Assembly: GCA_963843375.1 (NCBI GenBank)
Contig: CAWJKT010000010.1
Coordinates: 105,424-169,423 of the forward strand
DNA: 64,000 nt
Reading direction: 5' to 3'
From: an uncultured Pseudomonadota bacterium
Lineage (GTDB): Bacteria; Oederibacteriota; Muellerivitia; Muellerivitales; Muellerivitaceae
Shown here: positions 12,133 to 52,999 of the stretch, in pieces
Position numbering within the stretch: the stretch's first letter is position 1
Layout of the letters: each line of letters begins with the position of its first letter
The notes under the pieces: generated by a model
Told to the model about the DNA's origin: nothing
The model's database searches: none
What the model saw: only the letters and a program-made list of their open reading frames with translations
Position numbers and translations under genes: made by a program

Positions 12133-12166
12133 AACAAGTAAAAGACTTCGGCACAGGTTAAAACCC

Positions 12167-21456: not shown

Positions 21457-21588
21457 ATGAACTTAACGATCTACAAAAGCGCTTTTTCGGTAATTTGGCT
21501 CGTTATGAGATTCGTTTGCATTTAAAAGATTTAAAAAATCTTGGCCTCAAATGAATTCCGCTTATATCATCAGTCCCCGGAGGTAGGC

Positions 21589-23544
21589 ATGAAGGCTTTC
21601 GTAAAGTCAATGATGCTCCTTACTTCCATAGGTTTGGTTTCAATTCCATCCATTCTTCGTTCAGAAGGAACAATGCCAGAGAATCATTATAAAAATTTCA
21701 AAACTGCCATCTATATCGTGGTCAACGCGACACGTTCCTTTTCCGATCTCAAACGGCTACAACGGGAATTCGATCGAACCATGGCCCAGGTCAAATTCGA
21801 CAAGGTCTATCTGGAAGTCTACCGAGACAAACAATTTGCCGACGAATCGAAGTTGGATGGCATCAAAAAGTTTTTCACGGACCATGGGGTGGAAGTTTGG
21901 GGTGGAATTACCCTGGCCAAGGGCGGGCATGGGGGCCAGTTCGGAACTTTCGATTATGAGAATCCGGAGGATAGGGCCGAATGCAAGAAAGCCGTGGAAA
22001 TGGCCGCTCGGCATTTCGACCATGTCATTCTGGATGATTTTTTCTTCTATACAAGCAAATCCGACGCTGATATCTCCGCGAAGGGCAAGCGTTCCTGGAC
22101 GCAATACCGGCTGGATACCATGCGCAAAGCTTCCAGGAACCTCGTTCTCAAACCCGCAAGGACCATCAATCCTAATATCAAGATGATCATCAAGTACCCT
22201 AATTGGTACGAGCATTTTCAAGGGCTCGGCTACGACCTGGAAAAACAATCCCAAATGTTTGACTACATTTATACCGGGACAGAAACCCGTGATCCAACGA
22301 TCACGGATCAACTTCTCCAGCAATACGAGAGTTATGAAATTTTCCGCTACTTTAGCAACATCCGTCCGGATGGAGGCAATCTAGGTGGATGGGTTGACGT
22401 CTACAGCACCCGTTACGTGGATCGTTACGCCGAGGAATTGTGGGACACCCTTTTTGCCAAAGCACCTGAAATTACCCTATTCAATTGGGCTCCGATGTCC
22501 GAAACCCGTGCCTTGGATCCGGGAAACCGGGAAACCTGGAAGAACTTAGCGACAAGTTTTAATTGGGATGAAATGATCAAGACCTATAACCCAGCTCCCG
22601 GGGATACCGCCCCACCTGGGTGGGGAAGAGCGGCGGGTTATTCGCTGGAGAAAGTAGACCGGGTCTTGGGAATGCTGGGGAATCCCATCGGCATCGCCAG
22701 TTACAAGCCTTACCAGTCAACAGGAGAGGATTTCCTCCACAATTACCTGGGCAACATCGGGATTCCCATTGAGCTTCTACCCGAGTATCCCAAGGACGCC
22801 GATACAATCCTGTTGACTGAATCCGCAAAATTTGACCCCCGGATTGTTTCCAAGATCAAGTCCAGCCTGAAAGCGGGCAAGAACGTCTTCATTACCTCGG
22901 GACTTTTGAAGGCTTTGCAGGGGAAGGGGATCGAGGACATCGCAGAGCTGGAGTGTACCGGGCGAACGGTCTCCATTCATGATTTTATCAACGGTTACGG
23001 GGCCGGGAACGGAACCCCTTTAAACGACCCAAGTCACGAAAACCCATCCATTCTATTTCCGGAAATCCGGTTTTTCACGAACGATACCTGGGGGATCATC
23101 CGAGGTGTGGCCACATCCAAGGGATTCCCAGTCCTGCTTATGAACCGGTATTCCAAAGGCATCCTTTATGTGATTACAATTCCCGAAAACATTTCCGATC
23201 TCTACAATCTGCCGCAGGGCGTGGTGACCGCGATTAAAGGCTACCTTCAGGGCGATTTTCCGGTTCGGATCGATTCCCCCGCCCAGGTGGCTCTCTTCGC
23301 CTATGACAACAACAGCTTCGTGGTGGAATCTTTCCGATCCGAGCCCTGTGACGTGACGGTGACTTTGCCGGGAGAAACGGTTAAGTTAAGAGACGTTCAA
23401 CTTGATGTGCGGGTGGATGCCCAACCCGTCGCGACCCCCGACCTGAATAATTGGTGGGCCCAACAAAACCCCGAACCGCCAAAGAGGAATTTCAAAGTCC
23501 AAATAGCACCTCATTCCTACCGGGTTTTCTCCATCGAAAAATAG
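21589..23544 (+). CDS. Secreted protein of unknown function (~650 aa), inserted between xseA and xseB
   Basis: Start taken at ATG 21589 after a GGAGGT RBS; N-terminal signal peptide (MKAFVKSMMLLTSIGLVSIPSILRSEG); no family recognised with confidence (possible glycoside-hydrolase-like TIM-barrel N-terminal region). Confidence 0.7.
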   Translation: MKAFVKSMMLLTSIGLVSIPSILRSEGTMPENHYKNFKTAIYIVVNATRSFSDLKRLQREFDRTMAQVKFDKVYLEVYRDKQFADESKLDGIKKFFTDHGVEVWGGITLAKGGHGGQFGTFDYENPEDRAECKKAVEMAARHFDHVILDDFFFYTSKSDADISAKGKRSWTQYRLDTMRKASRNLVLKPARTINPNIKMIIKYPNWYEHFQGLGYDLEKQSQMFDYIYTGTETRDPTITDQLLQQYESYEIFRYFSNIRPDGGNLGGWVDVYSTRYVDRYAEELWDTLFAKAPEITLFNWAPMSETRALDPGNRETWKNLATSFNWDEMIKTYNPAPGDTAPPGWGRAAGYSLEKVDRVLGMLGNPIGIASYKPYQSTGEDFLHNYLGNIGIPIELLPEYPKDADTILLTESAKFDPRIVSKIKSSLKAGKNVFITSGLLKALQGKGIEDIAELECTGRTVSIHDFINGYGAGNGTPLNDPSHENPSILFPEIRFFTNDTWGIIRGVATSKGFPVLLMNRYSKGILYVITIPENISDLYNLPQGVVTAIKGYLQGDFPVRIDSPAQVALFAYDNNSFVVESFRSEPCDVTVTLPGETVKLRDVQLDVRVDAQPVATPDLNNWWAQQNPEPPKRNFKVQIAPHSYRVFSIEK

Positions 23545-31982: not shown

Positions 31983-32555
31983 TCAATTAGGACGCGGATT
32001 TCTTCGCCAGAACTCAGAACTGGCCTCGGGCATTTTCTTGTAAATGTTGTTCAAATGCGTCTTCAGAGTGGCCTTTGAAATGGACAATCTCTTGACGATT
32101 CTGGAATTGGTAAATCCTTGGATACAAAGATTGGCTATTTCCAATTCCCGCTTGGTTAAATCTTTGTTCCTGAATCTCTTGAGCCATGCGTCATATTTCT
32201 GCTGGAGGGGATACAACATCACCATTCGGTAAGGAACCGCATTGAAAAAAAGAACGTCAAAAAACTGGTTTCCCACCTTTTGGTTCGAAAAATATTGTAT
32301 CCCATCCTCGCCGAGGGGCCTCCCCAGGTTTTTTTCGCAGGACACGACACAGGTTTGTGGGCAATCCATTCCGGAAAAATTCCCGCAAAGTTTCTTGCAG
32401 ACCAAGTTTTGGAAATAAACCCTGGTCCCCGACCTTAATAGGCAAATACTGGTGCGGTTTTTCTTTAGAGCTTCCTTAAACCAAACGATCATTTTCCACC
32501 CGGAGGGTTGATTGTGGGTTCGTTCCTTTAAACGGACAATGAACTCCTGTCGCAT
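31983..32555 (-). CDS. LuxR-family transcriptional regulator (C-terminal HTH) with Cys-rich N-terminal region
   Basis: C-terminal LTKRELEIANLCIQGFTNSRIVKRLSISKATLKTHLNNIYKKM (LuxR/GerE HTH); N-terminal half contains CKKLCGNFSGMDCPQTCVVSC. Confidence 0.7.
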   Translation of the reverse strand: MRQEFIVRLKERTHNQPSGWKMIVWFKEALKKNRTSICLLRSGTRVYFQNLVCKKLCGNFSGMDCPQTCVVSCEKNLGRPLGEDGIQYFSNQKVGNQFFDVLFFNAVPYRMVMLYPLQQKYDAWLKRFRNKDLTKRELEIANLCIQGFTNSRIVKRLSISKATLKTHLNNIYKKMPEASSEFWRRNPRPN

Positions 32556-32623: not shown

Positions 32624-33286
32624 ATGACCGCCGTAACTAATGGAATGACCGTTTATACCGCCAAACAGGAAATGGCCAACTGCTTAACGGCTGGAATGGG
32701 AGTTGTCTTGGTTGGTGCAGGAACCATCTTTTTGATCGTTTTAGCCTGTCTTGAGGGAAATGCCTGGCATGTCGTAAGTTTCAGTATTTATGGCGGAACA
32801 CTAGTCCTGCTTTACTTGACAGCCACCCTTTACCACAGCTTCCGATCGCCTGGGGTTAAAAGGTTTTTTGAAAAACTGGACCATTCGGCGATATTCCTCC
32901 TGATAGCCGGCACTTATACCCCTTTCACCCTGGTAATTTTAAGAGGTGCCTGGGGCTGGTCACTTTTCGGGATAGTTTGGGGGATAAGCCTTTTGGGAAT
33001 TGTTTACAAACTCTTATTCACCGGACGTCACCGGGTTTTTTCAACCCTTCTCTATATTGGCCTAGGTTGGATGGCGCTTTTGGCCTTTAAGCCCCTGATG
33101 TCCGCCCTTTCTATCAGAGGAATGATTTTGTTGTTCTTGGGTGGAGTCAGTTACAGTTTCGGGACGGTTTTTTACCACCGAAAAAATTTTTATTACAGTC
33201 ATGCGATTTGGCACCTTTTCGTCTTGACCGGAAGCCTCTTCCATTACTTTGCGATTTTGTATTACGTTTTGCCCACGAAAGTTTAA
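32624..33286 (+). CDS. Hemolysin III / PAQR family membrane protein
   Basis: 7-TM protein with HlyIII-family motifs (…LYHSF…, LDHSAIFLLIAGTYTPF, …HLFVL…). Confidence 0.85.
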   Translation: MTAVTNGMTVYTAKQEMANCLTAGMGVVLVGAGTIFLIVLACLEGNAWHVVSFSIYGGTLVLLYLTATLYHSFRSPGVKRFFEKLDHSAIFLLIAGTYTPFTLVILRGAWGWSLFGIVWGISLLGIVYKLLFTGRHRVFSTLLYIGLGWMALLAFKPLMSALSIRGMILLFLGGVSYSFGTVFYHRKNFYYSHAIWHLFVLTGSLFHYFAILYYVLPTKV

Positions 33287-33310: not shown

Positions 33311-34008
33311 TTGAAAGACAATTTCTTGATCGCCGTCGCGAACCCTTCTCCCCGCTGTTTGTTCGTTTATCCCCATTTTACTTCCCAGTCCTTTTGGAAT
33401 TACCGAGCCACCTGTGAGGTGGTAGGTGCCAAATATCCCACAGCCCCCCTAGGACTTATCACCGTGGCAGCCATGCTTCCCCCGGAATGGGAAATTAGGC
33501 TTAGCGACCTGAATGCGGAGGAACTGGACGTACGGGATGTGGAATGGGCCGACATTGTTTTTCTTGGGGGAATGATTGCTCAACAGCCTGATCACTTATA
33601 CCTCATCGATTATTTCAAATCCTTGGGGAAAATAGTTGTCGTGGGAGGCCCGACGCAACATCGAGTCCCCGCCTTTACGATAAGGCCGACTATCTTGTGC
33701 TTGGGGAAGCCGAGGTGACAATGCCCCTATTCCTAGCTGATTTCGCCAAAGGTAAAGCCGGACATTTTTACGAAACAGGTGGTTTGAAAGCAATTATGGC
33801 TGACGGTCCAATGCCTCGTTTCAAACTGCTGAGGTTCGACAACTATCTCCATGTGGGAATCCAATGGAACCGAGGATGCCCCTTCATGTTCAAATTTTGC
33901 GACATCATCGAGCTATTCGGACGGATTCCGCGTGGAAAAAGTGTGGATAAGGTGCTGGAGGTTGCATATATTACGGGTTGTTGCGATTTTACCGATTCTT
34001 TTGTGTGA
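33311..34008 (+). pseudogene. B12-binding radical SAM protein (DUF4070-type), N-terminal fragment only, frameshifted and truncated
   Basis: B12-binding domain (…LFVYPHF…FWNYRATCEVVGAKYPTAPLGLITVAAMLPPEWEIRL…VVGGP) and start of the radical-SAM core (…RGCPFMFKFCDIIELFGRIPR…) in two frames; ends abruptly at ~34000 where the GC-rich MFS gene begins; a full-length protein would be ~480 aa. Confidence 0.6.
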
Positions 34009-35283
34009 TTGAAGAATGGAGGGGAGATGGAAGAGCAACCTGTAAAGTTGTACTCGTACAGATGGGTAGTGCTCGCGGTGTTCATGCTCATAAATGTCAT
34101 GGTTCAAGTGCTGTGGATCTGTTACGCGCCTATCGCAACGCTGGCGGCCACCGCCTACGGAGTGAAGCGTGAAGACATCGATCTCCTGGCGAACATGTTC
34201 ATGCTTATCTACATCGTTGTCGCTTTCCCGGCGGCCTGGGCAATTGATACTTACGGTTTCAAGAAAGCGGTCGGATTCGGCGCCTCATTGATGGGAGCTT
34301 TCGGACTGCTCCGTGCGCTGTTTCCCACGAATTACACTATGGCGGTGGTGGGATCGATTGGTATATCGGTCGGACAACCTTTTCTTTTAAATGCGTTCAC
34401 CAAATTTGCTGCCCTTTGGTTTCCGCAAAAACACAGAGCAACCATAACGGGCGTCATTTTTCTTGCTGTGTTTTTAGGTATCGGGCTTGGCGAGGTGCTG
34501 GGACCAGGATTGGTTTCTGCCTGCGGTTTTGCAGGAATGCAGCTCATCTATGGAATTGTCTCGGCAGTTTCAGCCTTGTTGTTCCTTGTTCTGGCACAAT
34601 CTGAGCCGCCAACACCGGCGAGCCCTCCGGGAGAGGAGGTTCGCGCGCTTGTGCTTGACAGCCTGAAGCAAATCCTAAAAAACAAAGACGTCTATATCCT
34701 CTCTCTCGCGCTGTTCCTGGCCAGCGGCATTGTGAACGGTGTGTTTACCCTGATTGACGGACTCGGAAAGGAGCTTTCGCTCACTGTAGACCAAGGTGTG
34801 CTGCTGACGGCTTTGTTGCTCCTCGGTGGAATCGTCGGTAGTATTGCGATTCCCGCGGTTTCGGACGCCTTAGGACGTCGGAAGCTGGTGCTGCTCATTT
34901 CGGTCTTTCTAGCAGTACCGGCCACGCTCGGTTTGGTGCTCGGGAGAGGCTTCGCATTCGAGATCATTTGTTTCTTTGTAATGGGCTTCGCGGTCACAGG
35001 CGTGACGCCGGTGGCCTATCAATACGGCGCTGAAATCACTTTTCCGGCTCCCGAGGGTACGAGCAATGGGATTTTCGCCCTGGTCGTACAGGCATCCGGT
35101 CTTCTGATAGTCCTGATGGACGCATTCCGGGGAACGTTCCATAACTCCTACATCCCATCGTTTGTAGGCCTCGCGCTGTTGCTGGGGGGAGCAGCCTTCC
35201 TCATGCTATCACTCTCCGAGTCCCCGAAGATGGCTCGATCATCGATAGCCGCTGAGTCGGAAGTAATATCAGACGGACTGTAG
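34009..35283 (+). CDS. MFS transporter (12 TM), GC-richer than its surroundings
   Basis: 424-aa ORF with 12 predicted TM helices and an MFS-like loop (…ALGRRKLVLL…); codon usage visibly richer in GCG/CTG/GGC than neighbouring genes. Confidence 0.8.
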   Translation: MKNGGEMEEQPVKLYSYRWVVLAVFMLINVMVQVLWICYAPIATLAATAYGVKREDIDLLANMFMLIYIVVAFPAAWAIDTYGFKKAVGFGASLMGAFGLLRALFPTNYTMAVVGSIGISVGQPFLLNAFTKFAALWFPQKHRATITGVIFLAVFLGIGLGEVLGPGLVSACGFAGMQLIYGIVSAVSALLFLVLAQSEPPTPASPPGEEVRALVLDSLKQILKNKDVYILSLALFLASGIVNGVFTLIDGLGKELSLTVDQGVLLTALLLLGGIVGSIAIPAVSDALGRRKLVLLISVFLAVPATLGLVLGRGFAFEIICFFVMGFAVTGVTPVAYQYGAEITFPAPEGTSNGIFALVVQASGLLIVLMDAFRGTFHNSYIPSFVGLALLLGGAAFLMLSLSESPKMARSSIAAESEVISDGL

Positions 35284-35353
35284 CGAAGCCCCTTGGCTAG
35301 TGGATAAACGGCGATCAAAGACCTCTTATGCCTTTATTAATGTGGGGTATTAA

Positions 35354-35728
35354 GTGAATCCAGTCCTCAAAAAACTCCAATTCAAGGGCCAAAGTCCCGT
35401 ATTGTTGATAGCGGCTCCTGCGGAGTTTCGAAAGATCGCAAAAGATTTCAAGGTCCCACTTCATACCGACCCAAAAGGGCAATACGAATTTATTCTTTGT
35501 TTTGTCACCTCCTTGGCCGAAGGAGAAAAAATATCTAAACGCCTTAAAAAAGCGGTTGGTAAAAAGACCGTTATGTGGATTGCATATCCCAAGGGAACCT
35601 CGAAAAAGTACCACTCTGATTACAACCGAGATACTGGGAACGCACTGATGGAGAAGCGGGGTTTTACAGGTGTTTCATTGGTGGCCTTGGATGCGGATTG
35701 GTCCGCAATGCGTTTCAAAATATTTTGA
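35354..35728 (+). CDS. DUF3052-like small conserved protein
   Basis: VLLIAAPAEF, FILCFV, MWIAYPKGTSKK, VSLVALDADWSAMRFKI match the DUF3052 pattern (recalled from memory, not searched). Confidence 0.5.
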   Translation: MNPVLKKLQFKGQSPVLLIAAPAEFRKIAKDFKVPLHTDPKGQYEFILCFVTSLAEGEKISKRLKKAVGKKTVMWIAYPKGTSKKYHSDYNRDTGNALMEKRGFTGVSLVALDADWSAMRFKIF

Positions 35729-35832
35729 TGAACCTGCAATTTATTATTCGGCCATCCCGAACAAAAAATCCATCTAGAAACAAGCATTTTTCTAATGACA
35801 GTTTTGATCACAATGAGGCGAGGAGGATTTAA

Positions 35833-36219
35833 ATGAGGATTAAGCTAAACAGCGTATTCGTAGACGACCAAGAAAAGGCTCTTAAGTTTTATACAGAAGT
35901 CTTGGGTTTTGTTAAAAAAGTTGATTTCCCCGTGGGGACATTTAAATGGTTGACGGTTGTCTCTCCTGAAGAACCAGACGGAACACAATTATTGCTTTCG
36001 CCGAATGCCAACCCTACTTCAAAGACTTATCAAAAATCAATTTTTGAACAAGGAATACCTACCACCTCATTTGCGGTGGACGATGTTCAAAAAGAATATG
36101 AAAAGCTTAAAAAACTCGGAGTAAAGTTTAGGCAACAACCGGTAAAAATGGGACCGGTAACTCAAGCGGTTTTTGATGATACCTGTGGAAACCTAATTCA
36201 GATTGCAGAGAAGGAATGA
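35833..36219 (+). CDS. VOC (glyoxalase/bleomycin-resistance/dioxygenase) family protein, low-GC gene
   Basis: 128 aa with a paired beta-alpha-beta-beta-beta module pattern (…FYTEVLGF…; …VKFRQQPVKMG…TCGNLIQI); notably AT-rich. Confidence 0.8.
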   Translation: MRIKLNSVFVDDQEKALKFYTEVLGFVKKVDFPVGTFKWLTVVSPEEPDGTQLLLSPNANPTSKTYQKSIFEQGIPTTSFAVDDVQKEYEKLKKLGVKFRQQPVKMGPVTQAVFDDTCGNLIQIAEKE

Positions 36220-36249
36220 AAGTCTTTCCACAACGGGGAGGGTAAAAAG

Positions 36250-37032
36250 TTGAAAATAATCGGAAAAGAAATATTGGTAGTGCTGGGACTTATAGTCGCT
36301 ATAAGCATTCCAGCGTATTTACTCCGACTTCTCTTTAAGTACTACGCTTTGTTTTCGTCCGTCGACCCCTTTGGGACTACTTGGAAAGGAGTGTGGATCC
36401 TTCAGGCCTCTACCTTGGTGGGCGTTCTCGTGACCGCCCTCTATACGAGCTGGCTGTTCTCCCTAAAACCCTGGCAAGGATTTGAATTCATGGGATTCAA
36501 AAAGCCTGATGGGAAACAAATCCTAGTTGCTTTATTGGCTTCTTTGCCTACCGCTTTGAACATGTGGTATGCCCTTCATTCAAGTCCTGGCGCAGCTTTG
36601 ATTCAGGGTTGGGGACCCCACCTTCTTTTTTCTTTTCTTGGTAACGGGGTTGTCGAGGAAGGCTTTTTTCGCGGCTTTTTCTACCATTATTTTCGAATGA
36701 ACCACTCTTTTGAGGGAGCTGCTTTGGGTTCGAGCCTTCTTTGGAGCTTGGCGCATCTGTCAATGTCCAGTGCCTTCGGCTCTTTTTGGGTCTCCATGAT
36801 CTTGGCCCTCGTTTTGGGTTTCCCCTTTGCCTACCTTTTTGAAAAAGGGAAGAATGTCCTTTGGGGCTGTATGCTGGTCCACATGGTTCTTGATTCATCC
36901 CAGTTATTCAAAAATCCAGATGGAACCGGTCTTAATTTAGGAAATCTCCAGGTTGTGAGTCTTTTGCTCACCACAGCCCTTATTTTTATTCTGCCAAGAT
37001 GGGTTATGAAATCGGATCGATCAATTCAATGA
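36250..37032 (+). CDS. CPBP family (CAAX/Abi) intramembrane metalloprotease
   Basis: EEGFFRGFFYHYF (EExxxR), LLWSLAHL (FxxxH), MVHMVLDS (HxxxD) motifs in TM helices. Confidence 0.8.
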   Translation: MKIIGKEILVVLGLIVAISIPAYLLRLLFKYYALFSSVDPFGTTWKGVWILQASTLVGVLVTALYTSWLFSLKPWQGFEFMGFKKPDGKQILVALLASLPTALNMWYALHSSPGAALIQGWGPHLLFSFLGNGVVEEGFFRGFFYHYFRMNHSFEGAALGSSLLWSLAHLSMSSAFGSFWVSMILALVLGFPFAYLFEKGKNVLWGCMLVHMVLDSSQLFKNPDGTGLNLGNLQVVSLLLTTALIFILPRWVMKSDRSIQ

Positions 37033-37036
37033 TAGA

Positions 37037-37064
37037 TGTCCACGACGGGGACCCGTCATGGACA
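37037..37064. repeat. Palindromic repeat copy R1 (tgtccacgacgg-ggac-ccgtcatggaca)
   Basis: 28-nt near-perfect palindrome (12-bp stem with one mismatch, 4-nt loop) beginning 4 nt after the CPBP stop; carries the core TGTCCACGACGGGGACCCG. Confidence 0.6.
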
Positions 37065-37110
37065 TGGAAATATTAGTTAATGAGGACTACGTTTTTCGAA
37101 GGGAGGCGTT

Positions 37111-37521
37111 TTGAGAAAAAACAAGGCCTTTTCAAATGATCTCGGGACTTTGCCCGTCACTATTTATGGAGGGGTTCCAGGCGCATTGTCGTTGTTCGGG
37201 TTGGGATTTTGCCTGGCATTTATTGTCGTCTTTTTACAAGTAACTGGGGACATTGTTCCCTTGTGGGCATGGCTGCTTTTTGGTTCCATGTCTTTTTTTA
37301 TGTTTTTAATGGGAATGGTGATTCTTGAAAACCGCATCCAGGTTAACGAATCGAGTTTGTCCTTGTCCCGCATGCACTGGAACCTATTTTCCCCGCCATA
37401 CTTGAAAATTCCTTGGGCCGACATCCGGAAAATCGATGCCAGCCAAAAGAACATCAAACCCGGCCGATATGGCCCTAACCAAATAACGTTGGTCCAAATT
37501 TTTCACAGCAGCTCGGAATAA
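37111..37521 (+). CDS. Small membrane protein (2 TM plus soluble C-terminal domain; possibly bacterial PH-domain/YdbS-like)
   Basis: Two hydrophobic helices then …RIQVNESSLSLSRMHWNLFSPPYLKIPWADIRKID…; family assignment tentative. Confidence 0.45.
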   Translation: MRKNKAFSNDLGTLPVTIYGGVPGALSLFGLGFCLAFIVVFLQVTGDIVPLWAWLLFGSMSFFMFLMGMVILENRIQVNESSLSLSRMHWNLFSPPYLKIPWADIRKIDASQKNIKPGRYGPNQITLVQIFHSSSE

Positions 37522-37664
37522 CCAGCGGAGATAAACGTAACCTTATTCAAGTCGAATCCCCAATGGCCAGTTATCGAAAAACCATCCTAGAGAAAGTGGG
37601 TGAAGTTCGGATCACGGAATCGGCCGGAAGGATTTTGGGGCGGGCGAGTCTTCATTAGAAACTT

Positions 37665-37693
37665 GCCCACGACGGAAACCCGTCGTGGACACC
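37665..37693. repeat. Palindromic repeat copy R2 (ccacgacgg-aaac-ccgtcgtgg)
   Basis: Perfect 9-bp stem with a 4-nt loop; on the reverse strand it reads TGTCCACGACGGG…, matching the core of R1/R3/R4. Confidence 0.55.
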
Positions 37694-37720
37694 TAAATTT
37701 AGAATTGTGTACATAATTAT

Positions 37721-37748
37721 TGACATAGTAATAAGAAGCATTATATTG
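37721..37748 (+). promoter_or_regulatory. Sigma70-like promoter (TTGACA, 16-nt spacer, TATATT) for the Phd/VapC operon, with adjacent TGTACA palindrome
   Basis: Consensus -35 and a strong -10 about 40 nt upstream of the antitoxin start. Confidence 0.45.
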
Positions 37749-37788
37749 AAGGGGTCGAAGGTTTTATAGCTTTCAAGAAGGTGGTCTT

Positions 37789-38067
37789 ATGCGAGTCGCG
37801 GGAGTAAGAGAATTTAGGGATCACGCGCCGGAATTTTTGAGCGGCGACGACCTTGTCTTTGTGACCAAACACGGGAAGGTTGCCAGCCTTTTGGTTCCGA
37901 TGTCTAAGTCGCAGGAACTTCCCTTGGAATTGCGGAGGGAGCTTTTAACGAACCTGGGTTCTTCCATTTCAAATCACCTCAAAAAATCAGGCGTCACTGA
38001 GCGGACGGTAACACATGACTTTGAAACATGGAGAAAAAGCCACCGGGCAAATCGCCGCGGACGCTAA
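37789..38067 (+). CDS. Phd/YefM-family type II antitoxin
   Basis: MRVAGVREFRDHAPEFLSGDDLVFVTKHGKVASLLVP N-terminus typical of Phd/YefM; the 3' end overlaps the PIN gene and the true stop is uncertain. Confidence 0.7.
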   Translation: MRVAGVREFRDHAPEFLSGDDLVFVTKHGKVASLLVPMSKSQELPLELRRELLTNLGSSISNHLKKSGVTERTVTHDFETWRKSHRANRRGR

Positions 38068-38446
38068 CGTCCTCCTTTCCGCCGCAACCGGGAGGGCCGC
38101 TCTCAAAGTTTTCATCCATTCCAACCTTGAAGTCATATCCACATCCTTGAACATCAAAGAAGTTTGGGAATATCTTCCCGTAATGGCCGCGAAATATGGA
38201 ATAGCCCCTGAACTCATGGAAAGCCAATTTCAATTATTAGCTGTCAGGGAATACGAACTCAGGGATTACCAAGGATCATTGGCTATAGCTCGAAGAAAAA
38301 TTGGAAAACGAGACCCGGATGATATTGATTTGCTGGCTTTATCTCTTGATCTGGGAATACCCCTGTGGTCAAACGATGGTGATTTTTCGGGAACCGGCGT
38401 TGAATGGTATACCACGGCTCAACTTCTTAAAAAGTTAGAGCTTTAA
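38015..38446 (+). CDS. PIN-domain (VapC-like) toxin
   Basis: Acidic PIN residues in DANVLLSA … DPDDIDLLALSLDLGIPLWSNDGDF. Confidence 0.75.
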   Translation: MTLKHGEKATGQIAADANVLLSAATGRAALKVFIHSNLEVISTSLNIKEVWEYLPVMAAKYGIAPELMESQFQLLAVREYELRDYQGSLAIARRKIGKRDPDDIDLLALSLDLGIPLWSNDGDFSGTGVEWYTTAQLLKKLEL

Positions 38447-38460
38447 TATGCGGCTTTAGG

Positions 38461-38479
38461 TGTCCACAACGGGGACCCG
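38461..38479. repeat. Repeat copy R3 (tgtccacaacggggacccg; right arm degenerate)
   Basis: 18/19 match to the R1/R4 core, 15 nt after the PIN stop. Confidence 0.55.
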
Positions 38480-38623
38480 GAATGACAGGCTACTTGTAAG
38501 GTTTTACATCTTCATTAAGGGTCATTTGGGCGACGAAAAGGCTACTGGGGCGGGCACTTGTCGCCAAAATGGATTAAGCATAAAATGCTTTTAATTGTCA
38601 GGAAGAAACCAAAAGGCATTGAG

Positions 38624-38923
38624 ATGAAAACAGCCATCCAAATCGACAAAGAAAAAATAGCTGAAATATGCCGAAGACACCATATCCAAAGGCTGTCCCT
38701 TTTTGGATCGGTCTTGCGGGATGATTTCAAGCCCGACAGCGACGTGGACGTACTGGTGCAATACCAGCCGGGCCAGGCCGTTGGTTTCGAGGTTTTTGAC
38801 ATCGAAAAGGAACTATCGGACCTGTTTGGCCATGAAGTGGATTTGGTGACTGAAAAATACCTTAATCCACGCCTTCGGGAACGCGTGCTCAATTCGGCGG
38901 AAGTCCAGTATGCAGAGGGATGA
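38624..38923 (+). CDS. Nucleotidyltransferase (MNT) antitoxin of a HepT/MNT pair
   Basis: LFGSVLRDDFKPDSDVDVLV (GSxxRGxxxxxSDxD) nucleotidyltransferase motif. Confidence 0.75.
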   Translation: MKTAIQIDKEKIAEICRRHHIQRLSLFGSVLRDDFKPDSDVDVLVQYQPGQAVGFEVFDIEKELSDLFGHEVDLVTEKYLNPRLRERVLNSAEVQYAEG

Positions 38924-39248
38924 CCGGGTTTATATCGGTCATATGTTAGATACGGCCAAAAAAGCCATCCTGAAAATTCAAGGCCGGAAACAAGAAGAGT
39001 GCGAAGCGGACGAGGATTTTTGCATCGTCCTGGCCCATTACGTTCAAACTTTCGGGGAGGCCGCCCGACATGTAAGCCCCGCCTAACAATCCGCTCACCC
39101 CAATATTCCCTGGGAAAAAATCATCGGGACGCGCCATAAAATTGTTCACGATTATTTGAGCGTGGATTATGGGGTCGTCCTGGGGGTTGTCTTCAGGGAA
39201 TTTCCACCGTTAATCCCCATCTTGGAAAAATACCTGGCCGAGATTTAA
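38910..39248 (+). CDS. HepT (DUF86) toxin; apparent frameshift near 39080
   Basis: MQRDDRVYIGHMLDTAKKAILKIQGRKQEECEADEDFCIVLAHYVQTFGEAARHVSP… then, in another frame, …HPNIPWEKIIGTRHKIVHDYLSVDYGVVLGVV… (HepT Rx4HxY-type C-terminus); 14-nt overlap with the MNT gene. Confidence 0.65.
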
Positions 39249-39283
39249 ATTCGAGTTTTCGGGCTTATTTTGCCGAAACAACC

Positions 39284-39302
39284 TGTCCACGACGGGGACC
39301 CG
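39284..39302. repeat. Repeat copy R4 (tgtccacgacggggacccg; 19/19 identical to R1 left half)
   Basis: 36 nt after the HepT stop; right arm not conserved. Confidence 0.6.
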
Positions 39303-39392
39303 CCTTGAACAAAGAAAAAGAACTGATTTGGCGGTCTGAAATGTGGAGTCTCTCGATTGCGATTTCTGGAAAAAGGTCGTAGGATTTAGGTC

Positions 39393-39743
39393 ATGCAAAA
39401 ACTGATTTTGATAATTCAACGAATGGTCTTGGTGTTTGGGTTCTTGGTGTCCCTGGTGCCCTGTTATGCTTGTCAGCAAGAATCAACCCCTATGAAGGCT
39501 TGTTCTATGTGCCACATGGAGCTTCCGATGAGTTGCTGCCATCACTCCAAGCCGACGGATCCCTTGTGCCAAATTGTGAACCAGCCGGCAGTTACACTTT
39601 CCTCAGTAAATCCGTCGATTGCGGCCACTACGGTGACTGCAAAAAGAATATTTCAACCGCCGTATTTGCCGATATTTAAGGCGGCTCCGGTTATCCAAAT
39701 CGTTGAATCTCCTCCACGAAGTTCTCCTGTCCTTAGAATCTGA
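39393..39743 (+). CDS. Small exported Cys/His/Met-rich protein (putative metal-binding)
   Basis: Signal-peptide-like N-terminus (…MVLVFGFLVSLVPCYA|C…); mature region CQQESTPMKACSMCHMELPMSCCHHSKPTDPLC has 8 Cys plus His/Met clusters. Confidence 0.55.
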   Translation: MQKLILIIQRMVLVFGFLVSLVPCYACQQESTPMKACSMCHMELPMSCCHHSKPTDPLCQIVNQPAVTLSSVNPSIAATTVTAKRIFQPPYLPIFKAAPVIQIVESPPRSSPVLRI

Positions 39744-39824
39744 TCCATTCCTTTTGCGGTTGTGAAAGCGAAAGCCGGTTGGCTTCCGCTTAATTGCGCT
39801 TTTGCGCTCAAAAGGAGTGGGACC

Positions 39825-41198
39825 TTGAAAAGCTTAAATAAGTACTCATCCGATTTTTTACCTGTACTTGGGCGGTTTTACCGCCCAAGTACACGACTTC
39901 TGCTATTGCCAGTCCTGACGGCTGTTTTCTTCATTTCACCCTGTTTTATTTCGGGTCTTTGGGCCGACTCGATGATGGACAAAATGATGCCTTCCATGAA
40001 AGAAGACGGCATCCTTTTGAATCCTACCCCAGACTTAGGTGGGATGGAACTGATGGACGTGGATATGCAGATGGTCATGCCCTTCGCCTTGCCCCACATG
40101 CCCATGAGCATGCTGATGCTTCACGGCTATGGTTTTGGGGAATGGATCACGGAAGACGGTGCCCGTGGCCGTACGGCTTTTTCAGGACCCGACATGTTCA
40201 TGGCCGATCTTGGAACGACCCTGGATGACCATCAATACCTCAACTTGGACTTAATGCTGACCAGCGACCTTTGGGCTGTGCCTGCCGCAGGAATCCCCGA
40301 ACTCCTGCAAATCGGCGAGGACCAGGCCAACGGCCAGCCTTTTATCGACGCTCAGCACCCACACAGTTCACCCATCATGGGCTTAACTCTCAGCGACACC
40401 TTTACCTTGGACGCAAGTGATAAAAGTGCCCTTAAATTATTCGTTGCGCCCCGGGGCGAAAGTACCGACGGGCCAATCGCTTTTATGCACCGGATTACAG
40501 GCATGGTTAATCCTGACGTGCCTTTGGGACACCATATCGGCCAAGACGTAGGTCACATTACGAGCACCGTTTTGGGCGAGTCGCTAAAACTGGGTAGCTT
40601 CCATATCGAGTCCTCGGTTTTTAACGGTTCGGAACCCAACCCTACTCAGGTGGACCTACCCATCGGCCCGATCAACTCAGTGGCAGTCCGGGGCATTGAG
40701 GAATTTGCACCGAACATCATGCTCATGGCTTCTTACGCCTGGGTGGGTACGCCCGAGCCGGGCATCGCCAATGACCAGCGCTATTCCGCCTCCCTTTACA
40801 CGCACACCCTACTTAGCGACACATGGACTTTTCATAACACACTTATCTATGGGGGTATTACCAATATCGACCACGTATTCCAGTTGAGTTCTTTTTTGGA
40901 TGAGTTTTTATTCAGTAACACTGTGGAAGACATATTCGCGCGCGTCGAAGTACTTCAACGCACACCGAATCAATTGGATATCCCCGACATTCCTAACGGC
41001 AATACGGGCCAATGGGTGAGCGCTTTGACGTTGGGGTACAGCCATCAGCTTGAGGCCTGGGATGGATGGGAATTGAGGGCGGGATTTTCCGTGACCAACG
41101 ACCAGCTTCCCGTGGACTATCAGGCATCTTATTCAGGAAACCCCTTTACCTATAAAGTGTTCTTCCAGTTGGGAGGCACCCAGTCTTATCAGCTTTAA
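39825..41198 (+). CDS. Met-rich outer-membrane protein, CopB/PcoB-like (putative copper export/resistance)
   Basis: TTG start 7 nt after an AAGGAG RBS; signal peptide (…RLLLLPVLTAVFFISPCFISGLWA|DS); Met-rich motifs MMDKMMPSM and MELMDVDMQMVMPFALPHMPMSMLMLHG; long C-terminal region with beta-strand-like alternation. Confidence 0.55.
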   Translation: MKSLNKYSSDFLPVLGRFYRPSTRLLLLPVLTAVFFISPCFISGLWADSMMDKMMPSMKEDGILLNPTPDLGGMELMDVDMQMVMPFALPHMPMSMLMLHGYGFGEWITEDGARGRTAFSGPDMFMADLGTTLDDHQYLNLDLMLTSDLWAVPAAGIPELLQIGEDQANGQPFIDAQHPHSSPIMGLTLSDTFTLDASDKSALKLFVAPRGESTDGPIAFMHRITGMVNPDVPLGHHIGQDVGHITSTVLGESLKLGSFHIESSVFNGSEPNPTQVDLPIGPINSVAVRGIEEFAPNIMLMASYAWVGTPEPGIANDQRYSASLYTHTLLSDTWTFHNTLIYGGITNIDHVFQLSSFLDEFLFSNTVEDIFARVEVLQRTPNQLDIPDIPNGNTGQWVSALTLGYSHQLEAWDGWELRAGFSVTNDQLPVDYQASYSGNPFTYKVFFQLGGTQSYQL

Positions 41199-41239
41199 GC
41201 GAGCAGTGATTTTAAATAAATAAAAAAAGGGAGCGGAAA

Positions 41240-41608
41240 ATGAAAAAGGCAATGATGATTTTGTTGGCGGCGACGTTGATGGTTTTAGCGAGCGTTAAAT
41301 TATGGGCTCATGGAGATGATAAAACATCCGATCAAAACTTGACAGGGGAAGTGGTCTGCCTTAACTGCTATTTGGCGCATGGGGGACAAGGGAATGTCCA
41401 TGTCAAATGCGCGAAACAATGTTTTGTCAAGGGTTTGCCGGTTGGTTTGAAAGTCGGGGAAAAACTTTATTTGTTGGTGGGGGAAAAACACGGAACCGCC
41501 AATAAGATGATGGCTCCCTATGCCGGGAAACAGGTTACGGTTTCCGGCCATCTTTTTGAGCAAGAGGGAATGAGTATGTTCGAGGTTGAAAAAGTTAAAA
41601 AAAATTAA
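41240..41608 (+). CDS. Exported Cys-rich periplasmic protein of unknown function (CxxC…C…C)
   Basis: Signal peptide MKKAMMILLAATLMVLASVKLWA; VCLNCYLAHGG…VKCAKQC. Confidence 0.55.
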   Translation: MKKAMMILLAATLMVLASVKLWAHGDDKTSDQNLTGEVVCLNCYLAHGGQGNVHVKCAKQCFVKGLPVGLKVGEKLYLLVGEKHGTANKMMAPYAGKQVTVSGHLFEQEGMSMFEVEKVKKN

Positions 41609-48294: not shown

Positions 48295-49146
48295 ATGAAG
48301 TTTTGGAGCCGATTTGTTGGCACTAGTTTGATTTTCGCCTTGGCCTTGAGCTTTGGAACCGCGAATGCGGCAGCGAAGAAGAAAAAGAAAATGGAAAAAG
48401 AGGTTGTCCACCACGCGAGGGTGGAAAGACCTCATCCCATTGAAGGGGCTGATTTGAACGGCCGTCCGGGTTATTTTTTCGCGGACACAGCAAATACGCC
48501 TAACCAAGGCCAAATCATGGGAGCCGCCCACGTATGGTTCGATTCGGCTTTCAACGGACTCAGCATTCCTTTTGGCGGAGCTTATGGAATAACCGATCAG
48601 ATTCAGGTCCATGCCAGCAGTTCTTTTTATGCCGCAGGGGGGCTCAGTGGATTGAATTTCCTGACTTTCGGCGGGAAGTATGGCTTCAAGCATGTCGCCC
48701 CGGGCCTGAATATCGCCGCAGGGTTGGATCTTTCAATAGGGCCATTATATGTTGCGAACGCAAGTGCGTTAGGTTTTGATCCTTATGGAATCGTCACTTA
48801 TACCTTCATAGACGGGCTTCAGTTGAACGGCCAATTGGGCGTATTCGTTCCGGGCGGAAGGAGCTATGCGAATCCTCTCTACGGAATCATACCAAACCAA
48901 CCACAAAATATTTCTTTAACGCCTCCAGCTTATCTTCAATTTAATGCGGGGGCAGCCTATCCCTTTGATCCAGATTTGACTGGAATTGCTGAACTTGCGG
49001 TTAATGGAGAAGGGAACGCTGCTACTCCTTTAATCGTTGGTCTTCGCACAGGACATGACGTGCAACTTCAAGCCTTCGGCGGGTTGGACTTAGCCGGACA
49101 AGTCGGCGTTTTAATCGGTGGTGGCGTCGCTCTTTTTTCAAAGTAA
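48295..49146 (+). CDS. Secreted Gly-rich protein, probable outer-membrane beta-barrel
   Basis: Signal peptide (…ALALSFGTANA|A), alternating hydrophobic pattern, C-terminus …GGGVALFSK. Confidence 0.5.
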   Translation: MKFWSRFVGTSLIFALALSFGTANAAAKKKKKMEKEVVHHARVERPHPIEGADLNGRPGYFFADTANTPNQGQIMGAAHVWFDSAFNGLSIPFGGAYGITDQIQVHASSSFYAAGGLSGLNFLTFGGKYGFKHVAPGLNIAAGLDLSIGPLYVANASALGFDPYGIVTYTFIDGLQLNGQLGVFVPGGRSYANPLYGIIPNQPQNISLTPPAYLQFNAGAAYPFDPDLTGIAELAVNGEGNAATPLIVGLRTGHDVQLQAFGGLDLAGQVGVLIGGGVALFSK

Positions 49147-50493: not shown

Positions 50494-52999
50494 ATGGAAG
50501 CCTATAATTTCACTGAAATCGAAAAGCGTTGGAAAAAACAATGGGTCGAAAAGGGCATCTTTGCCTGCGATCTCTCAAAAACCGATAAAAAATACTATAC
50601 CCTGGTCATGTTTCCTTATCCTTCCGGGGATTTCCTTCACGCCGGCCACGGGCGAAATTACATCATCGGGGACGCAGTCTACCGTTACTTTAAGGCACAG
50701 GGACGTAACGTCTTGAATCCCATGGGCTTCGATGCCTTCGGCCTCCCAGCCGAGAACGCCGCCATTCACAAAGGCATTCATCCCGAGGATTGGACTCTTA
50801 AAAACATTGAGCGCATGAAGGGCCAGTTTTACGATTGGGGAATGGGTTACGACTGGGACAAGGAAGTGGTTTCCTGTCTTCCCGATTATTACCGCTGGAC
50901 CCAATGGATTTTCCTAAAACTTTACGAAAAGGGCCTGGCTTATCGAAAAAAAGCCTATGTCAACTGGTGCCCTTCCTGCCTGACGGTTTTGGCCAACGAA
51001 CAGGTGGTGAATGGCCAATGCGAACGTTGTGACTCCATCGTCGAGCAAAAAGACCTGGAACAATGGTTCTTCAAGATTACGGCCTATGCTGACCGGCTTT
51101 TGAAGGATATCGACCGCCTGGAATCCTGGCCCGATCGGGTCAAAACCATGCAGCGAAACTGGATTGGCAAGAGCGAAGGCGCCGAGGTCCAATTCAAGGT
51201 GGAAGGAAAGAACGAGACCATTACGGTATTCACCACCCGACCTGACACCCTTTTTGGGGCGACCTACATGGTCCTAGCCCCGGAGCATCCCCTGGTATTG
51301 TCTCTTGTGAAGGGAACGGACAAAGAAGCCGAAGTGAAATCCTTCGTGGAAATGGTAAAAAAACAGAGTTCGCAGGATAGGGTAGGGGAGAGCGCTGAAA
51401 AGCTGGGTTTGGAAACGGGAATCCGGGCGGTCAACCCAGTTAACGGAAAATCGATTCCGGTCTACTTGGCCAATTATGTCCTCATGGATTACGGAACGGG
51501 AGCCATCATGGCGGTACCGGCTCACGATACCCGGGACTTCGACTTTGCTCAAAAATACGGCATTCACATTGTTCAGGTGATCGACCCGACGGATGAAGTC
51601 AAACACGCCTGGAAAGCCTCCAATCATACCTACGATCCCAAGGGGGAAGCTTATACGGATGACGGTAAACTGGTGAATTCAGATTTTCTGAACGGCCTGA
51701 ATGTTGAAACCGCGAAGAAAAAAATGACCGCTTGGCTGGAAGAAAAAAAGATGGGGAAAGCGGCGGTAACCTATCGCCTGAGGGACTGGCTCATATCCCG
51801 CCAACGCTACTGGGGAGCGCCCATCCCCATGATTAATTGCGAAGCCTGTGGCTGGGTGTCGGTTCCGGAAAAGGATCTGCCGGTCCTTTTGCCGCGGGCC
51901 ATTGAATTTAAGCCAACCGGAGAATCACCGTTGAAATCGGTCCCGTCCTTTGTGAATGTCTTCTGCCCCAAATGTGGGGGGAAAGCCCGTCGAGAAACGG
52001 ACACCATGGACACCTTTGTGGATTCCAGTTGGTATTTTCTGCGTTACGTATCGGCAAAAAACCAACAAGAAGCCTTCACCACCCCAACAGCAAACAAATG
52101 GCTTCCCGTGGACCAATATATCGGCGGGGTTGAACACGCTATTCTTCACCTTCTGTATTCACGGTTCATTACGAAAGTTTTAAAGGACCAGGGATTCATC
52201 AATTTTGACGAGCCTTTCAAGCGGCTTTTCACCCAGGGAATGATCACCAAAGGCGGGGTTAAAATGTCCAAGAGCAAGGGCAACTCCGTCCAACCCGATG
52301 AGCTGCATCAAAAAATACGGCTCGGATACTTTCCGGCTCTATACTCTTTTTATCGGCCCACCCGAACGGGACGCCGAGTGGGACGACCGGGCCGTGGAAG
52401 GTCCGTTTCGTTTTTTGAACCGTATTTGGAAATTTTTTCAGGAAGTGATGGAAAGACCGGACTTTGCCCAGAGTGAAAAACCCGAAGCCACGACCGAAGC
52501 CGACAAAGAAATCCGACGCAAAACTCACCAAACCATTCAAAAAGTGACGGTGGACATGACCGAAGGTTTCAAATTCAACACCGCAATCAGCGCTATGATG
52601 GAAATGATTAATTTGCTTTATGATTACAAAGAACAACCCGGCGCCAAAACCCCTCTTTTGCGAGAGGCTTTGGAGGCTCTGGTGAAACTTTTAGGGCCTT
52701 TTACCCCCCACGTGGCCGATGAAATGTGGAGCCGTCTGGGCGACGGGAAGAATCTCTTACAAGCCGGATGGCCTCAGTTTGACCCGGCATTGTTAAAATC
52801 CGATGTGGTGGAAATTCCCGTGCAAGTTAACGGCAAGGTGAAAACCAGGGTAAATATCGCCGTGGGATTGGCGGAGGAGACAGTGAGGGACTTCCTATTA
52901 AAAGAGGAAAAAGTCTTGAAGTTTGTCCGGCCCGAAACCGTCCAAAAATTGATTTGGGTGAAGGATAAATTGGCTAACTTTATTGTGAGAACAAATTGA
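50494..52999 (+). CDS. leuS: Leucyl-tRNA synthetase; apparent frameshift near 52290-52320
   Basis: HAGH (HIGH) motif, editing domain, KMSKSKGN then, in another frame, …[24 protein letters not shown]… and the anticodon-binding domain to the stop at 52999. Confidence 0.9.

Follow-up and report, generated by a model that had tools for sequence, protein, structure and literature searches.

A truncated radical-SAM gene fused to a probable array of mobile gene cassettes bounded by a short palindromic site

Introduction

Why does a B12-binding radical-SAM (rSAM) gene of an uncultured bacterium break off just ahead of a transporter gene, and what are the small accessory genes that follow? The locus lies in contig CAWJKT010000010.1 (assembly GCA_963843375.1, positions 105,424 to 169,423), a 64-kb stretch that was analysed whole and is called the window. 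Coordinates are those of the window, and L-numbered items are stretches of metagenome or metagenome-assembled genome (MAG) DNA that were compared with it. A preliminary description had seen here a compositionally mosaic island, acquired stepwise at the expense of the rSAM gene. A truncated rSAM gene alone would be ordinary genome decay, and the interest lies in the array that adjoins it. We put at roughly 60% the probability that the segment from about 33.95 to 39.31 kb is a chromosomal mobile-cassette array, fused by a deletion to the rSAM gene, and not an ordinary phage- or integrase-type island. With the same confidence we read its cassettes, from left to right, as an MFS transporter; a 124-aa protein with a VOC-family protein; a CPBP protease; a small membrane protein; an antitoxin with a PIN_2 toxin; and an MntA antitoxin with a HepT toxin.

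To our knowledge, no system other than integrons has so far been well described that stores promoter-poor genes in cassettes bounded by sites. Tools for finding integrons rely on attC structure and on IntI, and an array type with the logic of an integron and a simpler site would escape them.

Results

The rSAM remnant and its native locus

The left edge of the locus is made up of the following features.

32624-33286, + strand: HlyIII-family membrane protein gene (Pfam HlyIII, E 9.6e-39), the conserved left neighbour that anchors the locus
33311-33960, + strand: pseudogene remnant of a B12-binding/DUF4070 radical-SAM gene, with aa ~20-222 of ~545 (~40%) kept
33950-33960, + strand: junction microhomology GGTGCTGGAGG, 11 nt, read as rSAM codons K-V-L-E and matching the leader of the MFS cassette in L210 and L211
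33961-35338, + strand: 5'-truncated MFS transporter cassette (Pfam MFS_1, E 1.7e-38), with the gene from ATG 34027 to 35283

A scan of genome contigs with the HlyIII protein gave MAGs as the nearest relatives, with amino acid identities of 84% (L007), 79% (L009, labelled candidate division FCPU426) and 72% (L008). The rSAM gene directly follows HlyIII in L008, L009, L001 and L002, and in L008 and L009 it is intact, at ~530-545 aa. The L009 protein has B12-binding, Radical_SAM and DUF4070 domains by Pfam; DUF4070 was also found in the second open reading frame (ORF) of the L001 gene. This shared adjacency bears out the proposal that the rSAM gene was the original occupant, and by gene order the remnant is placed at the gene's native position.

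The ORFs 33311-33718 and 33697-34008 are two frames of one gene. Their joined product of 232 aa has B12-binding radical-SAM proteins as its best relatives, at 62-84% identity. As had been described, the remnant is an N-terminal fragment of a DUF4070-type gene: its identity to the relatives' full-length genes is 69-79%, over aa 20-222 only. When the L009 protein was compared with the whole window by tblastn, it matched with those residues alone, at 33350-33957; the C-terminal half, ~320 aa beyond aa 222 with DUF4070 included, for which a search elsewhere had been proposed, had no match across the 64 kb. The B12-binding profile PF02310 gives the remnant 23.4 bits (E 5.7e-5), below its gathering cut-off of 32.1 bits, and the relatives that are 69-79% identical to it do score for the domain. 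No NCBIfam equivalog reached its cut-off, even with an intact relative's protein as query. Like class B radical-SAM proteins with DUF4070, the remnant aligns to a B12-binding domain and to the start of a radical-SAM core, and it keeps the GCPF..FCD context; unlike them it is 40% of a protein, has CxxxFxxC, and lacks DUF4070. The middle cysteine of the cluster motif has become phenylalanine, through TTC at 33889-33891 where all the relatives have TGC, so that the motif reads C-P-F-M-F-K-F-C in place of C-P-F-M-C-E-F-C (CxxxCxxC). The sequence then stops ~25 aa past the motif, leaving the radical-SAM core incomplete. The remnant is also one base short in the G/C run 33644-33651, relative to L001 and L002. 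We consider the gene inactivated because of the truncation and the Cys-to-Phe substitution, and not because of the frameshift.

That the rSAM gene had decayed independently in three relatives was considered and dropped, since L009 and L008, the latter of the same species as L001, are intact. Likewise, two additional nucleotides in the L002 gene were not taken as true decay; L002 is a 'contig_N'-style assembly, in which indels are probably errors. L001 has an in-frame TAG at 10568-10570, at a Glu codon inside the cluster motif (C-P-F-M-C-*-F-C), where the codon in L008 is GAG; L001 has either a nonsense allele at strain level or an error of assembly. A LuxR/GerE-type regulator gene (31983-32555, minus strand) is conserved upstream of HlyIII in all the relatives. 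Between these two genes L002 has an extra radical-SAM gene of 425 aa, and L009 has an unannotated ORF of 455 aa. The order LuxR-(rSAM)-HlyIII-B12-rSAM may thus reflect a functional cluster of the ancestor; in the window only its LuxR and HlyIII genes are still intact.

The junction with the MFS gene

Homology of the remnant to its relatives runs out at 33957-33965 by blastn and alignment. Homology to MFS leaders begins at 33951, 33954 and 33960 (L210, L211 and L089; blastn), is 84-88% at the nucleotide level, and runs through the gene to 35260-35338. The two homologies meet in the 11-mer GGTGCTGGAGG, the counterpart of which in the L210 leader is GGTGCTAAAGG. This 11-nt overlap is the signature of an illegitimate, microhomology-mediated join. 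The rSAM fragment had been said to end at an MFS start at 34009; in fact the junction lies about 50 nt to the left of that position, and the MFS gene starts at ATG 34027, behind the ribosome-binding site GGAGGGGAG, and not at TTG 34009.

In L210 and L211 the same MFS leader extends a further ~57-60 nt upstream, through the promoter-like sequence TAAAATACTTGCAAAAT, to a palindromic site. The promoter-like sequence and the upstream site are absent from the window, which has the rSAM remnant in their place. The window's MFS unit is 84-88% identical to those of L087, L088, L089, L210 and L211, over the unit only, and the L089 MFS protein is 92% identical to that of the window. The MFS gene of L210 comes next after four small site-bounded cassettes (a PIN pair, DinB_2, GNAT and a 68-aa ORF), and that of L211 follows a beta-lactamase-family gene and a degenerate site. 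To judge by these contexts, the MFS gene is part of the same cassette system as the genes to its right, although in the window itself no recognisable site follows it.

A palindromic site in consecutive spacers

The key repeat of the locus is a 28-nt palindrome, TGTCCACGACGGG-GA-CCCnnnTGGACA. The pattern CCACRACGGRRA, for which the chance expectation in the window is 0.13, has five copies, all on the plus strand, at 36228, 37040, 37667, 38464 and 39287. These copies fill five consecutive intergenic spacers within 3.1 kb, each just past a stop codon: those of the VOC, CPBP, 136-aa membrane protein, PIN_2 toxin and HepT genes. There is no copy in the other ~61 kb of the window, nor in 60 kb from the relatives L007, L008 and L009. 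Repeats had been reported here before and are indeed present; what had not been recognised is their role as a directional palindromic site at cassette boundaries. The genes and sites to the right of the MFS cassette are as follows.

35354-35728, + strand: gene for a 124-aa protein of no family (no Pfam or NCBIfam match), with no site between it and the VOC gene
35833-36219, + strand: AT-rich VOC/glyoxalase-family gene (Pfam Glyoxalase, E 5.8e-19)
36225-36243, + strand: site S0, degenerate (TTTCCACAACGGGGAGGGT), 6 nt past the VOC stop codon
36250-37032, + strand: CPBP (Rce1-like) intramembrane protease cassette (Pfam Rce1-like, E 2.7e-15)
37037-37064, + strand: site S1, full palindrome TGTCCACGACGGGGACCCGTCATGGACA, DNA hairpin of -10.6 kcal/mol (z -3.3)
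37111-37521, + strand: cassette for a 136-aa small membrane protein, an ORF with a weak NCBIfam STM3941-family match (E 0.002)
37664-37691, + strand: site S2, full palindrome TGCCCACGACGGAAACCCGTCGTGGACA, DNA hairpin of -13.7 kcal/mol (z -6.3)
37789-38446, + strand: toxin-antitoxin (TA) cassette 1, a 92-aa putative antitoxin (37789-38067) and a PIN_2 toxin (38015-38446; E 8.2e-19)
38461-38488, + strand: site S3, a pattern match with core TGTCCACAACGGGGACCCG and a divergent right arm
38624-39248, + strand: TA cassette 2, an MntA nucleotidyltransferase antitoxin (38624-38923) and a HepT/HEPN toxin (38910-39248)
39284-39311, + strand: site S4, core TGTCCACGACGGGGACCCG and a divergent right arm; the last site, at which the recognisable array ends

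The GGGGAGG variant seen in S0 is also found in sites of L210 and L211. A second motif, AAGGnnnnTGGGGCGGGC, occurs twice, at 37628-37645 (19 nt before S2) and at 38538-38555 (50 nt after S3), the latter copy falling where homology to the MntA/HepT segment of L208 starts; the motif may be what is left of a related cassette leader.

Arrays in other genomes

L089 was taken up solely for its 92%-identical MFS protein. It proved to hold 8 sites in 11 kb, each just behind a co-oriented gene or gene group, with Phd-type and BrnT/BrnA TA pairs, small ORFs and a five-gene block as cargo. When JGI metagenomes were scanned with the exact 26-nt palindrome, at least 120 stretches were found, at least 98 of which hold two or more sites. 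Array statistics were drawn from 100 arrays with 336 sites. The median spacing from site to site is 775 nt (interquartile range 562-1062), and a site lies a median of 21 nt behind a stop codon. The longest ORF between sites points the same way as the site in 193 cases and the other way in 26, and site orientation is mixed at one locus only. The consensus of 319 distinct sites is TTGTCCACGACGGG-GA-CCC-nnn-TGGACAA, with the palindrome form TTGTCCACGACGGG-GA-CCCnnnTGGACAA. In this set conservation is 87-99% in the left arm, at the asymmetric GA centre and in the outer part of the right arm. It drops to 61-72% at positions 18-21, with no compensatory change on the left arm, and some right arms are GTAG-like there. 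Conservation is confined to positions -1 to 28, about 30 nt, and the flanks are not conserved.

The cargo was sampled through 148 array ORFs, about half of which have no Pfam family; the others include PIN (six), GNAT (five), BrnT/BrnA, MazF, Phd, MqsA, TacA and FitA. CPBP genes other than that of the window are found as cassettes in L093, L178 and L203.

Two kinds of gene recur beside the sites. Group II introns with reverse transcriptase/maturase ORFs (Rfam group-II-D1D4-4 and Intron_gpII) start within about 50 nt downstream of a site at L168:630-836, L174:6208-6416 and L132:1822-2028, and a fourth reverse transcriptase gene was found in L200. A gene for an HflX-type GTPase lies beside or between sites at L095:1139-2455, L151:3499-4872, L153:9636-10967, L159:4496-5908 and L177:1-789; a main array of the lineage may have a preferred place on the chromosome, marked by hflX.

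The sites as boundaries of exchange

To ask where homology between arrays begins and ends, the array loci were compared all against all. Of internal homology-block ends, 35% lie within 15 nt of a site centre, compared to 2% at random, and 47% lie within 30 nt, compared to 5%. The boundaries were then resolved with 11 pairs in which one cassette is shared by two different arrays. On the 5' side of the upstream site the two arrays are unrelated (0.69 mismatches/nt), but they agree in the right arm of that site (0.10) and in the leader. At the other end they agree up to and including the core of the downstream site and then part, in its right arm (0.29) and in the DNA beyond (0.56). A cassette therefore consists of a right arm, a leader, one or more ORFs and an invariant core, in that order, and the predicted crossover falls inside TGTCCACGACGGGGACCCG or at its end. 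An empty and an occupied state are represented by one pair of loci: L202 has one site, and L138 has two direct sites around an extra 2.2 kb. The L202 site has on its left the context of one L138 site and on its right that of the second.

The cassettes of the window behave in the same way. The segment from S2 to S3 (37664-38488), with the antitoxin and PIN_2 genes, is 82-87% identical at the nucleotide level to L162, L154 and L101, and the segment 38542-39318, with MntA, HepT and S4, is 85% identical to L208. The MFS cassette and both TA cassettes thus recur elsewhere, at 82-88% identity, always with different neighbours, which is direct evidence of unit-by-unit acquisition. The stepwise acquisition that had been proposed holds in this respect; it does not hold for an insertion at the start of the MFS gene, where the junction looks like a microhomology deletion or fusion into the leader of an existing cassette.

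Origin of the locus

A cassette ends about 5-40 nt past its last stop codon, in the invariant half of the 28-30-bp site, and starts with the variable half; cassettes are therefore swapped by crossover inside the site. The following course of events would account for these observations. Most likely, a site-specific recombinase whose gene lies elsewhere cuts a cassette out as a circle and inserts it again at a different site, in the manner of integrons with attC. In the ancestor of the window the array would first have lain beside the native rSAM gene, downstream of HlyIII. An illegitimate deletion across the 11-nt microhomology (GGTGCT..AGG) would then have joined rSAM codon ~222 to the MFS leader. 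Lost in this deletion would have been the end of the rSAM core and DUF4070 and, on the MFS side, the site upstream of the cassette and its promoter-like sequence. The remnant would later have drifted, losing its cluster cysteine. The TA cassettes may serve to stabilise the array.

A broader proposal, to which we give rather less than even odds, is that the palindrome is the recombination site of an undescribed integron-like cassette system that is common in uncultivated peat and soil bacteria related to FCPU426. Such a system would use sites of the size of lox or dif and a non-IntI recombinase that is not encoded beside the arrays, and the window would be one array with a collateral deletion at its edge. 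The site sequence was not found in a literature search, in which integron-like arrays without attC led only to integron papers and FCPU426 only to community surveys.

Several points weigh against an array moved by site-specific recombination. No site is recognisable after the MFS gene or the 124-aa gene, and the reading of the left third as part of the array draws on the analogy of L089, L210 and L211. The 84-88% nucleotide identity of the MFS genes resembles that of HlyIII to its closest relative (84%), so that on identity alone vertical descent with rearrangement is possible for the MFS gene. The predicted crossover lies in the only long identical stretch, of 19 nt, where RecA-dependent recombination or slippage would leave the same footprints; site-specific recombination is thus not proven. 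Among six-frame ORFs of at least 120 aa, the tyrosine-recombinase box II motif (H-x-L-R-H-[TS]), a crude test, was found neither in the window nor in ~0.5 Mb of array loci. A Pfam census of 121 array-locus proteins gave rve and serine recombinases, with no Phage_integrase among the top families; over two censuses Phage_integrase was not among the top families, and only hflX and the reverse transcriptases of group II introns were recurrent. The enzyme may be encoded elsewhere. None of the relatives found is close enough to show the state before the deletion, and the single-nucleotide frameshift in the rSAM remnant is unreliable and may be an assembly error. The synteny comparison that had been proposed gave no empty site: the closest relatives (HlyIII at most 84% identical) share only LuxR-HlyIII(-rSAM) with the window, and a pre-insertion state is not definable from them.

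Alternative explanations

The main rival is that the palindrome is of the repetitive extragenic palindrome (REP) type, or a hairpin at mRNA 3' ends, that accumulates behind small accessory genes; exchange of the genes would then be a by-product of recombination or slippage, with no dedicated recombinase. REP elements and the bacterial interspersed mosaic elements (BIMEs) that they form are dispersed in intergenic copies genome-wide, often as inverted pairs, and are associated with a RAYT transposase. The site resembles them in being a short (28-30 nt) GC-rich intergenic palindrome with a stable hairpin, just downstream of stop codons, with many copies in the lineage and with flanks that are not conserved, and its GTAG-like right arms recall REP heads. 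The failure to find a recombinase in the window and ~0.5 Mb of array loci is as expected for such an element, and exchange driven by homology would likewise be expected to fall in the invariant 19 nt to which the crossover maps. Unlike REP copies, however, the sites are confined to arrays: the clustering is extreme, with 5/5 copies in consecutive spacers and none in the 61 kb and 60 kb searched besides. They are strictly oriented relative to the genes and lie at homology breakpoints. Of the two halves of the palindrome, one is invariant and one varies with the cassette, without compensatory covariation. Further, the presence of the same cassettes in unrelated arrays calls for integration, which 19-28 bp of identity would support poorly. 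We regard a REP-type origin as unlikely.

A canonical integron remnant (CALIN), with unusually short attC sites and with IntI encoded outside the 64-kb window, is less probable still. The likeness in architecture is considerable. As in sedentary chromosomal integrons, tandem, co-oriented, mostly single-gene cassettes of ~0.4-1.8 kb carry one site each just 3' of the ORF, boundary sites are chimeric, the same cassette turns up in different arrays, and the content is mainly TA systems, GNAT acetyltransferases, VOC-type enzymes and ORFs of no family. The hairpin itself can be read as a miniature R-box, spacer and L-box. Group II introns lie within about 50 nt of the sites in L168, L174 and L132, and group IIC introns are reported to lodge likewise at attC hairpins (PMC7923331); by this analogy, intron placement would suggest that the site folds as a hairpin in vivo. 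The site, nevertheless, lacks what defines attC, i.e., R''/R' and L''/L' boxes with conserved AAC/GTT triplets, unpaired central spacers with extrahelical bases, and a variable terminal structure of 20-100 nt (PMC4889954). An attC reading of the repeat was rejected, since RYYYAAC/GTTRRRY boxes are missing and neither an AAC upstream nor a GTT downstream is conserved. The repeat is a plain palindrome of 28-30 bp with a loop of 2 nt and no flanking conservation, and its crossover separates the two arms at the centre, away from the 3' edge. Neither the window nor the array loci, which belong to an uncultivated lineage with candidate division FCPU426 as its nearest named relative, yielded an integrase. 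The arrays are integron-like in logic and fail the integron tests run on site features and by integrase search; they appear to be a variant of the integron/CALIN kind.

An assembly artefact, in which errors or a chimeric join would have produced the rSAM/MFS junction, the frameshift and the stop codons, is very improbable. Apparent frameshifts in the core genes leuS, lysA, panB, panC and an aminotransferase gene, some of them at homopolymers, do invite this reading. The junction and the next 2.3 kb are, however, identical in L003, a Logan contig made by k-mer assembly of run ERR11523672, which reproduces them base for base, and the segment 35004-36768 is identical in three further runs of two accession series. 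An 11-nt microhomology is typical of real deletions, the Cys-to-Phe change and the TAA in HepT are substitutions and not indels, and the truncation does not depend on the frameshift. Weakest of all is a native, vertically inherited gene order with a short B12-binding ORF that functions alone among core genes, as eight of the ten island units might suggest by GC and codon usage within the window's range, since relatives carry the full-length three-domain gene at the same position, the fragment has lost its cluster cysteine and ends in non-homologous sequence, no island gene occurs in the 20-kb neighbourhoods of L007, L008 and L009, and single cassettes recur in other contexts.

Relation to other site-bounded modules, and significance

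The mobile-cassette array also invites comparison with the pdif modules of Acinetobacter plasmids and with lox and FRT sites. The pdif sites are 28-bp XerC-spacer-XerD sites that resemble dif and alternate in orientation around modules. In common with these systems, the sites of the arrays are ~28-34 bp long with two inverted arms and a short asymmetric centre that gives direction, and, as with pdif, they bound small modules that often are TA systems. They differ from pdif in that all point one way (but for 1 of 100 arrays), in being unlike the dif consensus, and in their place on the chromosome, where an array may reach 8 sites or more.

If the proposed system is real, it would be a second, independently evolved solution to cassette capture, and its compact 28-bp site would be of possible use in genome engineering. 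It would also pose a concrete search problem, that of a recombinase that co-occurs with the arrays. The modularity of the island was understated by gene-by-gene GC content and was revealed by homology breakpoints.

Reliability of the assembly

Several core genes of the window are split, each ORF matching only part of its own Pfam profile. The lysA gene is divided between 6474-6833 and 6754-7722, overlapping ORFs on the same strand, and leuS between 50494-52476 and 52298-52999, with A6 and T6 runs in the overlap. A class I/II aminotransferase gene is in three pieces, and panB and panC are fragmented, these three genes lying within 10438-11604 and 12071-14158. These splits are most likely indel errors of long-read assembly, and the relatives also derive from long-read-style assemblies. 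Because core genes such as leuS and lysA are split alike, and a frameshifted leuS is not credible biology, single-base frameshifts in the window are suspect. The frameshift that had been reported in the rSAM fragment is there as a one-base deletion, and for this reason is weak as evidence. The rSAM deletion is shared by L003, which may, however, stem from the same reads. The lesson is that apparent frameshifts in this assembly are not to be taken as biology without a check of the reads.

L003 is identical to the window for 6126 nt and then has seven substitutions in its final 82 nt (window 36304-36340 against L003:6127-6163), diverging from about 60 nt past the degenerate site S0. This end hints at a divergent allele of the CPBP cassette in that sample, or at a tip of the assembly graph.

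Composition and other genes of the window

Background composition was taken from 50 ORFs, with GC of 0.486 +/- 0.020 (range 0.439-0.528) and GC at third codon positions (GC3) of 0.526 +/- 0.047. As had been stated, the MFS gene is GC-rich and the VOC gene AT-rich. The former is the GC maximum at 0.535 (z +2.5) and has the worst codon-usage z of the window, -5.7, against a background minimum of -3.5 in a length-corrected likelihood test; the latter is the GC minimum at 0.393 (z -4.6), with GC3 of 0.349 (z -3.8). A compositional mosaic is thus borne out for these two genes and not for the other eight of the ten island units, which fall inside the background range for both GC and codon usage. The 1-kb GC profile of the island, 0.42-0.53, lies within that of the whole window, 0.40-0.54. 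A classical genomic island, marked by deviant composition, insertion at a tRNA or tmRNA gene, an integrase and flanking direct repeats, was considered and rejected, with only the MFS and VOC genes deviant, and neither a tRNA gene nor an integrase found. No tRNA gene or Rfam match that might be an integration target and no phage match was found in the window, and none of its Pfam-annotated ORFs is an integrase. A plasmid origin was likewise rejected: the sole plasmid matches were to the VOC gene, at 67% nucleotide identity, in megaplasmids of Bacillales. The closest non-self homologues of the VOC protein are ~80% identical, and those at 71-80% are many and include Nitrososphaeria and Bathyarchaeota, which fits a widely exchanged small gene.

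The identifications given earlier for the MFS, VOC and CPBP genes and for two TA pairs were confirmed by Pfam and NCBIfam. The 124-aa gene had been called DUF3052-like, for which there is no support: it has no Pfam match even at E<=1, and no NCBIfam match. In TA cassette 1 the 92-aa ORF overlaps PIN_2 by 53 nt and is conserved beside PIN_2 in L162, L154 and L101. A sigma70-like TTGACA-16-TATATT was seen by eye upstream of the cassette. Gene order, sizes, overlap and domains agree with a type II VapBC-like (PIN_2) module, except that the 92-aa partner has no match to any Pfam or NCBIfam family; an exact-protein look-up gave no record of it.

In TA cassette 2 MntA scores 49 bits against an NCBIfam cut-off of 60, and its Pfam NTP_transf_2 match is significant. 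The HepT gene is interrupted by an in-frame TAA at 39084-39086, upstream of the RX4H motif (RHKIVHDY), and matches the HepT-like profile (E 1.1e-15) only with the TAA read as Tyr, the residue that L208 has there. Order, sizes, overlap and domains agree with the type VII MntA/HepT systems, and RX4H is kept; the difference is that the window's HepT is cut ahead of this catalytic motif. By these features the pair belongs to the type VII family by descent, with its toxin disrupted; the toxin is probably dead, and it is likely that only the antitoxin is made. The HepT homologue of L208 (L208:2301-2617) has Tyr at that codon and a change of frame soon after RX4H. Either both copies are damaged, in different ways, or the L208 assembly has an indel.

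The genes of the window outside the array are housekeeping genes, with ORFs of 667 aa (21541-23544) and 283 aa (48295-49146), without a Pfam family, among them. After the last site, at 39393-41608, three co-oriented genes without a Pfam family encode a Cys/His-rich secreted protein of 116 aa, a Met-rich protein of 478 aa (MMDKMMPSM..., MQMVMPF...) and a secreted protein of 122 aa. This group had no homologues in any locus compared; its composition suggests a cluster for handling metal, perhaps copper.

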